Positions 23,824 through 26,295 of a stretch of DNA of 64,000 nt are shown here, piece by piece (the stretch's first letter is position 1; each line of letters starts with the position of its first letter). Both the position numbers and the translations under genes were made by a program. A model generated the notes under the pieces. That model did not search any database. It was not told where the DNA came from and saw only the letters and a list, made by a program, of their open reading frames with translations. Origin of the DNA: a virus; the IMG/VR virus record IMGVR_UViG_3300032294_001558. The stretch is one strand, 5' to 3'.

Positions 23824-26295
23824 TTAGGCGTCAAGTACCTCCTTGTACAGGTTCAGAAGCGAATCGAGGCTGGCGGTCTTGGACTCCAGCGCTTCATACT
23901 GCTTACGCTCGACCGGGGAGCCGCAGAGCTTGACCACCAAGCAGGGGTTTTTCTGGCCCGCCCGGTGGACGCGAGCATTGGCTTGGTGCCAGATTTCGTT
24001 AGAGGTCACAGGCCCCCACCACACGACAGTGTTGGCCGCGTGCAACGTCACACCATGCGAAGCAGCGGCGGGCTGAATCAACAGAATGCGTGGATCAGGT
24101 CCAGTCTGAAACGCCTTAAATATTTCTGTACGTTTATGAGCAGCTACACCACCATGAACTACTTCTACTGTGTATCCGTCTTTTTTCAGTTGGTTCTCTA
24201 GATGGTCTATTGCGTGCCGGAAAGGGACGAAGACAAGAACTTTGTGTGTGCTTTCTTCTATCGCTTCTAGTAAAACATTATACCGATGTGTCATGTCGAA
24301 CACTACGGTATTACCGTCGTCGGTATAGACCGCCCCACAGTTATGTACAATTAGCGGGGTGCCTGTAGCCCCCCGGACTACAAACCTACTGCGCGGCCCA
24401 CAGTTTACAAGGTCGTAGACTCGCTCCGTACCAGCGTAGTGAGCGCTTTCTCTAGCGGCCAGTTGTACCGAAACAGTCGCGCATGTAGCGTCGCTTTCTT
24501 TATACCGTAGACTTCCGCCGCCTGTGTTACCGTCAAACGGCCCTTTGGTGTATCCACCCACTGGTTGAACCGCGTATTGTTGGCTTGCTCCGTAGCCGTA
24601 GCCCATCGACAGTTCTCTGGACTGTACGGGCCATTCACGTTTATCCGATCTAACGCCAAACCATCGGCGTACCCTTCCTGCATGTCGGCCCAGAAATTCG
24701 CAAACGACTCTTCCCAATGTTTGCAAACAGTTATCCCCCGTGCTCCGTAATTTTGGTAGTCTTTGTCTTTTGGGTCTAAACATCTCCGCCGCATACCGGA
24801 CCATACGCGGTACGGGCGAGATTGCGTCATTCTGTGCGTTTCGTTCCCGTGATGGCAACCACAACTCCTTGGGTGCACCCTCTTCGTATTGCGAAGATAT
24901 TGGCTCTGCCTCTCCACAACCGCCCCGCAATCGCATTGACACACCCACTTCGCGCACTGACTTCCGCGCACCGTTGACTCGGCTCGCGCTAATACCACCA
25001 GGAAGCCGAACCTCTGCCCAGTCAAGTCCAGCGCCCGTCGCACGGGGTTTGAGTATGTCATCTGCCGTCGCCCATCCGTCATTTGTAAGCACCTTATGAT
25101 CTGCGGTCATACGAACCCCAGCAACGGTAACCAAGGGCTTTACACCCCGGAAGATCGCTCCTTGCTGGGCCACCCACTCCACGCCATCCCAAACGCGATG
25201 TTGTGGAGTAACGAGTTGGATTGGTAACCAACCTACGTCGGTTAATACGTCTGTGTTATACGATATACATGCTACCTGTAAAAGCTTGTTAAGATTAGTA
25301 GCCGCATTGACCGACGTTACGGTTTCTCCAGCGGCAGTCATTATAAACTGCTCTTTGAGGAGCTTGTAGTACTTAGACTGCTGCGGTGTGAGCGGGGCTT
25401 CGCGCGTGGTATACAGCAATTCCGGCAGGTCTAAGCATTCATCTTTCGTAAATCTGATCGCTGGCTGTAGTATTTTGTTAATCGTTTCGGCTGCATCAGT
25501 CTTAGGTTTCCACCTAAACTGTGTGAGTTTATACATCACTCTATCGCGGAATGTATAGAAATTTGATGGTATTGATCCCGGGTCCATCATTTTAGCTAGG
25601 CCATAAGCGTCAGTAGGACTTTGCGAGGCAGGGGTGCCAGTCAACATCCACAGCCACGTATTCGGCTGAATTAATGAGTTGATCGCTCTCCATCTTTTGG
25701 TGGTGGCGGTTTTTACTGCGTTGGCTTCGTCGATTATTACCAAATCGAAACCGCTATCTTTCAGGTCTGGTAGGACTGTTTCGACGCCATCAAAATTTAT
25801 GATGACAAACTCAGCATCGGATTGTATGACTTTAGTACGTTTCTCTCTGCTACCGTGAGCAATATCTACCCTGCGGTGCATGACCGTTTTGAACAGGTCA
25901 GCGCGCCACGCCGAGTTCATGATCGACAGTGGGCAGATCACCAAAACGCGTCTGACATGCCCCGTACGCAACAAGTAGTCCGCTGCCCACGCTACGCTTG
26001 CGGTCTTGGCGGTGCCCGGGTCGTTGAAACAATACGCTCTACGATGGAGTGTGAGAAACGAAGCTGTAGTCCGCTGGTGCGCAAATGGCGTATATATCCC
26101 CGGCCAGTTGTAGTGCTTTTCTATTGGCGATGGTACTTTCTTGACGCCTAGATTCTTTAGTACTTGGGACTCGTCTAGGCCCCAATAGACCAACACTGTG
26201 CCATCGGCTAGTTGTTTGGAACGGGGGATCGTTGCGAGCACCCGCTCGGGGTGCCGCAACTTAAGAAGCAAAGCTTTGTTCTCTACTATCTGCAT
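23824..26295 (-). CDS. SNF2/DEAD-like helicase precursor containing an intein
   Basis: Motif I DPGTAKT, motif II VIIDEAN, motif VI QANARVHRAGQ. Interrupted between ..LLQVA and CGAVYTDDG by a Hint-type element. Confidence 0.85.
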   Translation of the reverse strand: MQIVENKALLLKLRHPERVLATIPRSKQLADGTVLVYWGLDESQVLKNLGVKKVPSPIEKHYNWPGIYTPFAHQRTTASFLTLHRRAYCFNDPGTAKTASVAWAADYLLRTGHVRRVLVICPLSIMNSAWRADLFKTVMHRRVDIAHGSREKRTKVIQSDAEFVIINFDGVETVLPDLKDSGFDLVIIDEANAVKTATTKRWRAINSLIQPNTWLWMLTGTPASQSPTDAYGLAKMMDPGSIPSNFYTFRDRVMYKLTQFRWKPKTDAAETINKILQPAIRFTKDECLDLPELLYTTREAPLTPQQSKYYKLLKEQFIMTAAGETVTSVNAATNLNKLLQVACISYNTDVLTDVGWLPIQLVTPQHRVWDGVEWVAQQGAIFRGVKPLVTVAGVRMTADHKVLTNDGWATADDILKPRATGAGLDWAEVRLPGGISASRVNGARKSVREVGVSMRLRGGCGEAEPISSQYEEGAPKELWLPSRERNAQNDAISPVPRMVRYAAEMFRPKRQRLPKLRSTGDNCLQTLGRVVCEFLGRHAGRVRRWFGVRSDKREWPVQSRELSMGYGYGASQQYAVQPVGGYTKGPFDGNTGGGSLRYKESDATCATVSVQLAARESAHYAGTERVYDLVNCGPRSRFVVRGATGTPLIVHNCGAVYTDDGNTVVFDMTHRYNVLLEAIEESTHKVLVFVPFRHAIDHLENQLKKDGYTVEVVHGGVAAHKRTEIFKAFQTGPDPRILLIQPAAASHGVTLHAANTVVWWGPVTSNEIWHQANARVHRAGQKNPCLVVKLCGSPVERKQYEALESKTASLDSLLNLYKEVLDA
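24340..25269 (-). mobile_element. intein (310 aa, Hint splicing blocks, no in-frame endonuclease motif)
   Basis: Cys1 codon at 25267-25269 (CISYNTDVLTDVGW). Block-B-like RMTADHKVLT. C-terminus VYDLV..PLIVHN, with the Asn codon at 24340-24342, followed by Cys+1. Confidence 0.8.
24405..25082 (-). CDS. HNH_3-like homing endonuclease encoded in the +1 frame inside the helicase intein
   Basis: 225 codons. Motifs [59 protein letters not shown]. Frame offset from the intein start is 187 nt (mod 3 = 1). Confidence 0.65.
   Translation of the reverse strand: [225 protein letters not shown]

Follow-up and report, generated by a model that had tools for sequence, protein, structure and literature searches.

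We analysed the SNF2-family helicase gene carried by a 64,000-nucleotide (nt) stretch of viral DNA (IMG/VR record IMGVR_UViG_3300032294_001558; the whole stretch is called the window below). This gene is interrupted by an insert that is, judging by its sequence and predicted fold, a class-1 intein, and a second open reading frame (ORF) nested within the intein-coding region, on the same strand and in another frame, encodes a putative nuclease related to HNH homing endonucleases. Our overall reading, which we consider probable, is that a single DNA stretch holds a two-gene homing element consisting of the intein and a separately made, overprinted nuclease. The nested arrangement had been pointed out in a first-pass annotation of the window, whose coordinates and quoted peptides all agreed with the ORF listing and a codon check. 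The features are collected in Table 1.

Intein in the SNF2 helicase gene

Two Pfam domains were found in the helicase ORF, SNF2-rel_dom (2.7e-20, amino acids (aa) 91-339) and Helicase_C (1.2e-15, aa 673-780), and the ~330 residues between them were unmatched. The insert in this interval is exactly 930 nt long and in frame; it begins with Cys and ends with His-Asn directly before another Cys (Cys1, TGT at 25269..25267; His309-Asn310 at 24345..24340, with Asn310, AAC, at 24342..24340; Cys+1 at 24339..24337). Removal of 25269..24340 produced a helicase that aligned without gaps (232 aa to 696 nt) with the intein-free SNF2 helicases of Rhizobium phages. The predicted splicing would restore the junction ...LLQVA-CGAVY... 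of an SNF2 helicase, the intein-free helicase junction being AAGCTTTTACAGGTAGCA/TGTGGGGCGGTCTAT.

The splicing motifs of the insert were compared with those of 16 metagenomic relatives. Block B is present as T55-A-D-H58 (25107..25096) and block F has its Asp (VYD286L), which was conserved across the alignment. The residues C1, T55-x-x-H58, D286, H309, N310 and C+1 were invariant or nearly so, and in the C-terminal region V284, D286, G291, P292, R295, V298, H309 and N310 were invariant. The AlphaFold2 (AF2) model of the intein frame was confident at residues 1-75 and 278-311 (pLDDT, the predicted score in the local distance difference test, 86-97). Its Foldseek matches in PDB were inteins only, namely Ssp DnaB, Npu DnaB, the DnaX mini-intein, gp41-1 and Mtu RecA (probability 1.00, E down to 6.7e-4).

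Sequence profiles were less informative. The Hint/intein models of Pfam and NCBIfam matched neither frame, nor an artificial mini-intein; a blastn search with the helicase gene against phage genomes gave no match, and locus searches with a pattern derived from the Hint-N alignment were unsuccessful, the alignment being too divergent. Separate profile searches of each frame, which the first-pass annotation had put forward as a check, therefore returned no Hint or HNH match from Pfam or NCBIfam, and the identities of the two proteins rest on PHROGs, a marginal I-HmuI match, folds and motifs. From its motifs and model, we conclude that 25269..24340 is a class-1 intein with a Hint fold, predicted to splice. 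The earlier description of a helicase broken by a Hint element with Cys1, block B and Cys+1 was thus upheld by the catalytic residues, the predicted fold and the exact splice junction.

HNH genes are common in phage introns, and the depositors of Sodalis phage SO-1 noted 'type I self-splicing intron' for the gp38/gp39 genes, which raises the alternative that what interrupts the helicase is a group I intron with an HNH ORF inside it. We give this reading practically no credence. No Rfam intron matched at E <= 1 in 24000..25600, the host frame stays open from one end of the insert to the other, every class-1 catalytic residue is present in flanks with a Hint fold, and the length and terminal residues given above are those of an in-frame protein insert. 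A fractured gene with a split intein was also ruled out, since a single 823-codon ORF reads through the region.

Putative nested nuclease gene

The nested ORF is offset from the intein frame by 187 nt, that is, +1, and has a second in-frame ATG at 25061 as an alternative start. Its product matched phrog_374 (2.3e-61) and phrog_3377 (1.2e-51), both named 'HNH endonuclease', and was modelled by AF2 with a mean pLDDT of 89.3. The model has a Cys-rich, Zn-ribbon-like module at the N-terminus (W46-x-C48-x-C50-x-C52-G ... C74-G-C76), a helix-turn-helix (HTH) at the C-terminus (aa 180-215) and between them a predicted beta-beta-alpha core with strands at 143-146 and 158-161 and a helix at 163-167 (DSSP). 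The fold is shared by 134 BFVD viral predicted structures, many of them named HNH or homing endonuclease.

A single nuclease sequence, used as the query against PDB sequences, gave no match. When a profile of 49 family members was used, the best PDB sequence match was I-HmuI (1U3E), at a marginal E = 0.034, and fell exactly on the catalytic motif (I-HmuI residues 64-114, covering D-H...N...N). R146, N157, W160 and N169 were invariant in the 49 members; the N157 equivalent is conserved, and Q166 and N169 align with I-HmuI Asn96 and Asn99.

The family is large, with 1,182 matching phage records and >7,700 database relatives. These are mostly free-standing, often multi-copy phage genes, in which the D-R...N...Q..N core is invariant. 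The top 120 relatives were stand-alone proteins of ~190-390 aa without an assigned Pfam nuclease domain.

Selection on the two reading frames

At the helicase locus neither frame is interrupted anywhere in the 678 nt of the nested ORF, and 14 stops occur in the third frame. When the nested codons were shuffled synonymously, the intein frame acquired 7.05 stops on average and only 0.02% of shuffles were stop-free, so the claim of a 225-codon ORF at +1 with both frames open was confirmed and goes beyond chance. The intein frame had no stops in any of the 12 nested loci tested, nor in the second unit of the window described below. In the same loci the third frame had 9-27 stops and the shuffle expectation for the intein frame was 3.7-15.8 (P(0) <= 0.01 each), while free-standing nuclease homologues had 12-24 stops in the equivalent frame.

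At the 56.6% G+C of this genome, long open alternative frames alone are no evidence of genes. Across 39.5 kb of other window genes, open runs in alternative frames of the same strand reached 186 codons at most, and an antisense ORF of 270 codons (22298..23110, plus) lies opposite the gene at 22433..23374 (minus).

The pattern of substitution separated the two frames. Between the window and L003, a contig with the same insertion, substitutions in the overlap were distributed 23/26/73 by nuclease codon position (chi-square about 39), whereas upstream of the overlap they tracked the intein frame (7/2/22 by codon position). Within the overlap the amino-acid sequences were 82% identical when read in the nuclease frame, against 63% for the intein frame and 59% for the third frame, which is untranslated. 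Both frames are therefore held open by selection, and protein-level purifying selection within the overlap is confined to the nuclease frame.

The intein-frame product of the overlap, here called the spacer, has a hydrophilic, R/G/A-rich composition. It matched no family in Pfam, NCBIfam or PHROGs, was modelled with pLDDT <50 over intein aa 99-276, and did not differ from synonymous shuffles in hydropathy. The absence of stops, the low identity, the low pLDDT and the shuffle-like hydropathy together indicate that the intein frame of the overlap is kept open yet is otherwise unconstrained. The earlier statement that the intein frame has no endonuclease motif between the splicing blocks accordingly stands. 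With a spacer lacking family and fold, and a nuclease at +1, this is not a canonical bifunctional intein, in which the endonuclease belongs to the intein polypeptide.

Translation of the helicase always includes the spacer, whose length of about 190-200 residues is conserved, and this could be taken to mean that the spacer polypeptide is itself a functional domain and the region has a dual function. This is very improbable given the poor model, the lack of family matches and the shuffle-like hydropathy. Moreover, its amino-acid conservation is no better than that of the untranslated third frame, and mini-intein relatives exist that have no spacer at all.

Recurrence in other phages

We examined 16 Hint-flanked units, spanning two host genes (SNF2 helicase and DNA polymerase) and many phage lineages. 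The nuclease was at +1 in 11 units, at +2 in five and in frame in none, and the homologue check proposed earlier thus found the alternate frame open and the nuclease out of frame throughout. Units at +1 included those in the DNA polymerases of Caulobacter phage GB2A, Shewanella phage SFCi1 and APSE-1 (nested ORF annotated as P46), in Streptococcus prophage Javan255, and in the IMG/VR and metagenome contigs L003, L006 and L016-L019; in L003 and L016-L018 the unit occupies the same SNF2 helicase site as in the window. Units at +2 were found in the DNA polymerase of Sodalis phage SO-1 (gp38/gp39), in Salmonella Jerseyvirus EnJE6, in Vibrio phage 97.13, in a Dhillonvirus and in the DNA polymerase of the window itself. 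A tblastn search with the intein recovered 193 phage records, 145 of them from Salmonella phages, with APSE and Dhillonvirus included.

An in-frame nuclease motif was absent from all 22 precursor proteins checked, and no in-frame relatives were found among the top 120 nuclease homologues. The long inteins among the 22 precursors (281-314 aa) all had a spacer and the short ones (115-154 aa) were plain mini-inteins; insert-free mini-intein relatives were P0010, P0016 and P0018. The recurrence in 16 units, these insert-free relatives and the frame-specific selection bear out the proposal that a nuclease gene of free-standing type is nested in a mini-intein-like domain.

From one genome alone, a sequencing or assembly error or a recent pseudogenisation, in which paired indels displaced an in-frame HNH domain, could not be excluded. 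The comparison leaves this explanation next to no probability: the layout is shared by 16 independent units, whose sources are isolates and metagenomes with sequencing dates from 1999 on, there is no in-frame relative, intein-frame stops are selectively avoided, and the points of entry and exit coincide with a start codon and a stop codon.

Several of these records deserve comment in their own right. In APSE-1 (L012, NC_000935), P46 as annotated (2931..3353, 141 aa) seems to lack its 5' part; the homologous open frame, 2703..3353, has 216 codons beginning with GTG 2703, and its alignment to the window nuclease begins at residue 16. In SO-1 (L013, NC_013600), gp38/gp39 (1094..4282 and 2578..3336) carry the intron label mentioned above, which is probably wrong, the layout being that of the same intein with a +2 nested nuclease. 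In L014 and in ~145 Salmonella Jerseyvirus genes annotated as 'intein-containing DNA polymerase precursor', the nested coding sequence is unannotated, and L014 has an intact 247-codon nuclease ORF at +2 (2593..3334). The metagenomic DNA polymerases P0010, P0014 and P0016 contain a second mini-intein or remnant upstream (YDILNAGPRNRF...VHN[SC]), which suggests that family-A polymerases hold at least two insertion sites for the family of the window intein. Immediately upstream of the intein, the DNA polymerase of L019 (1..2030) was called in two pieces, ORFs 1..531 and 549..2030; this may be a natural split or a frameshift.

Expression of the nested gene

All units have a stop in the nuclease frame 1-8 codons ahead of an ATG or GTG. 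The start codon lies inside the conserved T-N-D-G-W codons (aAATGAc) in four loci, the window among them, and most loci have the nuclease stop within block F (gTAAac, Val/Leu-Asn), some having it within block G. Shine-Dalgarno-like GG-rich motifs 6-9 nt upstream of the starts were individually modest and jointly enriched (Fisher p = 3e-4, 10 independent lineages). No stable RNA structure or regulatory hairpin was found over the nested start.

These start signals favour separate translation of the nuclease from an internal start on the host mRNA as the most likely route. The other route is a pair of programmed ribosomal frameshifts, one of +1 following block B and one returning ahead of block F, which would yield a canonical Hint-HNH-Hint protein. 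The overlap on the same strand makes this formally possible, yet two efficient shifts would be needed and there is no conserved slippery site. We hold frameshifting to be highly unlikely, principally because entry points vary (inside TNDGW, GWKNA or further downstream) and the family uses both the +1 and the +2 offset. Each unit also keeps its own start, right after an upstream stop in the same frame, and its own stop, and the zero-frame spacer is actively held open, which would be needless if ribosomes left that frame. Of the two routes to uncoupled expression named in the first-pass annotation, internal initiation was thus favoured and frameshifting disfavoured.

Mobility of the unit

We compared nucleotide identity inside and outside the intein in two pairs of sequences. 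Between the window and L003 the intein was 81% identical, the N-extein 59% and the C-extein 53%. Between the window and L016 the intein was 96.8% identical and the C-extein with downstream genes 75%, with an intermediate value (86.7%) across the C-terminal splice junction (24248..24397), a stretch that may be a co-conversion tract. Judged from these alignments, the drop in identity at the intein edges matches recent homing with a short co-conversion tract and points to recent lateral movement of the unit.

Proposed mechanism

Under the two-gene reading, the precursor would be translated straight through in the helicase frame, and the intein with its ~200-residue spacer would then splice out; the spacer would need only to be free of stops and not to hinder Hint folding. 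The +1-frame nuclease would be made separately, most likely from ATG 25082 behind AAGGTG on the helicase mRNA, and its level would therefore not be tied to that of the helicase. It would most likely cut or nick intein-free helicase alleles during co-infection, and repair would then copy the entire intein-nuclease unit into the cut allele (homing). The arrangement probably originated when a free-standing nuclease gene invaded a mini-intein. We infer internal initiation, the splicing itself, nuclease activity and the target site from sequences and models.

Several observations weigh against this scheme. The nuclease motif reads L-D-R-I-N, with an invariant Arg146 in the column of I-HmuI His75 in all 49 members. 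No Pfam or NCBIfam HNH model matched the nested protein, the I-HmuI profile match was only marginal, and the best whole-chain Foldseek match in PDB, the HNH enzyme PacI, was non-significant (E = 0.7). At the expression level, the Shine-Dalgarno-like motif of the window is weak (-4.1 kcal/mol, 20th percentile of the locus background) and no promoter-like site was found upstream of the nested start. As for mobility, the high identity of the intein may stem partly from double coding constraint and not from transfer alone; countering this, the N-terminal Hint part, which lies outside the overlap, was 83% identical between the window and L003 when the N-extein was 59% identical.

Because of the Arg in the His75 column, the marginal I-HmuI match and the non-significant PacI fold match, we call the nested protein HNH_3/I-HmuI-like but non-canonical, its nuclease activity being assumed from the behaviour of its family. 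The first-pass description of a 'complete HNH_3-like' endonuclease was right about the resemblance and too strong in 'complete', given that an invariant Arg replaces the catalytic His.

These features also raise the alternative that the nested protein is not an active nuclease and is instead a DNA-binding relic or regulator, with the intein immobile or mobilised in trans by another homing endonuclease of the phage. Consistent with this, the Pfam scan of the 49 relatives returned HTH models only and no HNH, and the window has other free-standing HNH-type genes (37485..38693 and 58053..59537). We nevertheless consider an inactive protein unlikely. The nuclease frame is under strong purifying selection and its product folds confidently; the invariant core and the mostly free-standing, multi-copy phage genes give the distribution expected of homing endonuclease genes; and in both comparisons (L003 and L016) the conservation of the intein-nuclease unit far exceeds that of its flanks. 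HNH-type enzymes without a His general base are known, and PacI, the top though non-significant fold match, probably uses a Tyr.

Other elements in the same phage

The window's family-A DNA polymerase contains another member of the helicase intein's family, which also encloses a nuclease ORF. This intein matched Hint-N (E = 9e-13) and Hint-C (E = 5e-6) and has C1, TADH, YDIALAGPNNRF and LIVHN/C. In this unit the intein frame had no stops and the third frame 26, with 6.0 expected and 0/5000 shuffles stop-free. The TAA stop of the nested ORF is formed from the terminal His-Asn codons (caT AAt), and its product shared 42-48% identity with the nucleases of +2 type from Vibrio phage 97.13 and SO-1.

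The large terminase ORF (48910..51537, 875 aa) contains a canonical, in-frame LAGLIDADG intein of about 358 aa (~49180..50253, plus) adjoining Walker A, identified from motifs alone (C-ADSTPV ... LGVWLGDGTA ... LLAGLIDTDGHV ... VTHN/S). Canonical and overprinted designs, the latter in the helicase and polymerase, therefore coexist in one genome. Two further genes are free-standing and homing-endonuclease-like, at 37485..38693 (minus; phrog_1314, 4.9e-77) and 58053..59537 (plus; phrog_559, 3.9e-92). The window phage is unusually rich in selfish nuclease genes.

Table 1. Coordinates of the two intein-nuclease units and their parts in the window.
Feature	Coordinates	Strand	Details
SNF2-family helicase precursor ORF	26295..23824	minus	823 aa (ORF listing)
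N-extein of SNF2 helicase	26295..25270	minus	
Class-1 intein (predicted), 310 codons, helicase frame	25269..24340	minus	Cys1...His309-Asn310
N-terminal splicing region, blocks A and B, intein aa 1-75	25269..25045	minus	AF2 pLDDT 93-97, beta-rich
Shine-Dalgarno-like AAGGTG	25095..25090	minus	7 nt upstream of nested ATG; His-Lys-Val codons after block B
Nested nuclease gene (putative), 225 codons and TAA	25082..24405	minus	ATG 25082, TAA 24407..24405
Overprinted spacer, intein frame, about aa 76-277	25044..24439	minus	Stop-free, without predicted fold
Predicted catalytic beta-beta-alpha core, I-HmuI/HNH_3-like, aa 143-169	24656..24570	minus	R146, N157, Q166, N169
C-terminal splicing region, blocks F and G, VYDLVNCGPRSRFVV...LIVHN	24438..24340	minus	AF2 pLDDT 86-95
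C-extein of SNF2 helicase, stop codon included	24339..23824	minus	
Second intein, same family, 293 codons	29568..28690	minus	In family-A DNA polymerase ORF 30855..28078
Second nested nuclease ORF (putative), 266 codons, +2 to its intein	29491..28691	minus	phrog_374 4.8e-29

Comparison with known systems

The first-pass annotation knew of no described example of this arrangement, and here it has been overtaken: out-of-frame or antisense homing endonucleases in inteins have been published (bioRxiv 10.1101/2025.01.02.630785; bioRxiv 10.64898/2026.09.14.751524). In the first of these, Gosselin, Arsenault and Gogarten described actinophage inteins with an out-of-frame or antisense homing endonuclease and proposed invasion by free-standing nuclease genes. 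Those inteins resemble the helicase intein in being contiguous and seemingly able to splice, in having the endonuclease between the splicing blocks in another frame, in the proposed origin and in their signs of continuing horizontal transfer. They differ in the nuclease, since the same-strand out-of-frame enzyme there resembles endonuclease VII (frame 3) and the inteins with HNH have it in frame, whereas the I-HmuI/HNH_3-like D-R variant here is at +1 or +2. The hosts differ too: actinophage DNA polymerase, minor capsid protein, terminase and thymidylate synthase there; here phages of Gram-negative hosts plus streptococcal prophages, with the SNF2 helicase among the host proteins. The helicase locus shows the marks of such a non-canonical intein, namely a continuous frame, a separate ORF, purifying selection and horizontal transfer.

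In the second study, Phillips, DeSimone and Gogarten reported a dnaX intein of cyanobacteria whose LAGLIDADG endonuclease is out of frame, citing Gorbalenya 1998 for its first mention, and termed the arrangement a rarity. It shares with our unit the overlapping frames, a zero-frame spacer predicted to be disordered, frame-dependent selection that conserves the endonuclease frame, and secondary invasion of a mini-intein as the proposed origin. The dnaX case involves a LAGLIDADG enzyme, a cellular host gene and a +2 ORF, in contrast to the HNH-like nuclease in phage replication genes here.

Two other systems place a nuclease gene in a host gene by different means. The ShiLan-type 'hidden' insertion in mycobacteriophage methylases (Arsenault et al. 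2025, PMC11855218) is likewise an out-of-frame HNH-type gene inside a host ORF that remains open, and its TAA overlaps the last insert codons, as in the second unit of the window. It has no detectable splicing domain and is thought to be retained in the protein, whereas here a complete Hint domain flanks the nuclease gene. In fractured genes (Dassa et al. 2009, PMC2677866), split inteins are separated by a free-standing endonuclease gene within the intein-coding region, with short coding overlaps between the 3' end of the nuclease and the C-part of the intein. There the host gene is in two ORFs and splicing is in trans, unlike the helicase, whose frame is continuous through the nuclease gene.

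The closest relatives, APSE-1 P45/P46 and SO-1 gp38/gp39, belong to the same intein family and have the nested ORF already annotated, although not interpreted; their host is DNA polymerase, P46 was called from an internal ATG and SO-1 was labelled as an intron. I-HmuI of Bacillus phage SPO1 is a phage homing nuclease with extra DNA-binding modules, as the nested protein is predicted to be. It differs in having His75 and Asn96 where Arg and Gln stand here, in being intron-encoded and in lacking the same N-terminal Zn-ribbon and C-terminal HTH. No paper was found that describes this architecture in an SNF2 helicase or in the APSE/Jersey/SO-1 intein family.

Because out-of-frame homing endonucleases were already described for other inteins in 2025-2026, the helicase unit represents no new type of element and is instead a new, well-replicated and widespread example of a recently described kind.

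Significance

The nested gene in APSE-1, the Jersey-like Salmonella phages and SO-1 is unannotated, truncated or mislabelled as an intron. Gene callers overlook these nuclease genes, surveys that consider only in-frame nucleases would class the elements as endonuclease-less, and the D-R nuclease family has no curated profile model. With many natural replicates, two offsets and two host genes, the family could be used to study how a splicing domain tolerates a stop-free spacer and how an internal start is used within a translated gene. It could also be used to ask if free-standing nucleases create new inteins, a question that bears on the 'splicing first' model.

Out-of-frame homing endonucleases are called rare in recent papers, and our results suggest that they are the rule for one large intein family in phages of Gram-negative bacteria. 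Tentatively, and with slightly less than even confidence, we propose that in this intein family, with its 193 phage records, overprinting is a stable, family-wide state as opposed to a rare accident of transition. If so, uncoupling nuclease synthesis from that of an abundant replication protein would itself be selected, and the His-less (D-R) HNH-like family, with its >7,700 members, would be a major uncharacterised class of phage homing nucleases.

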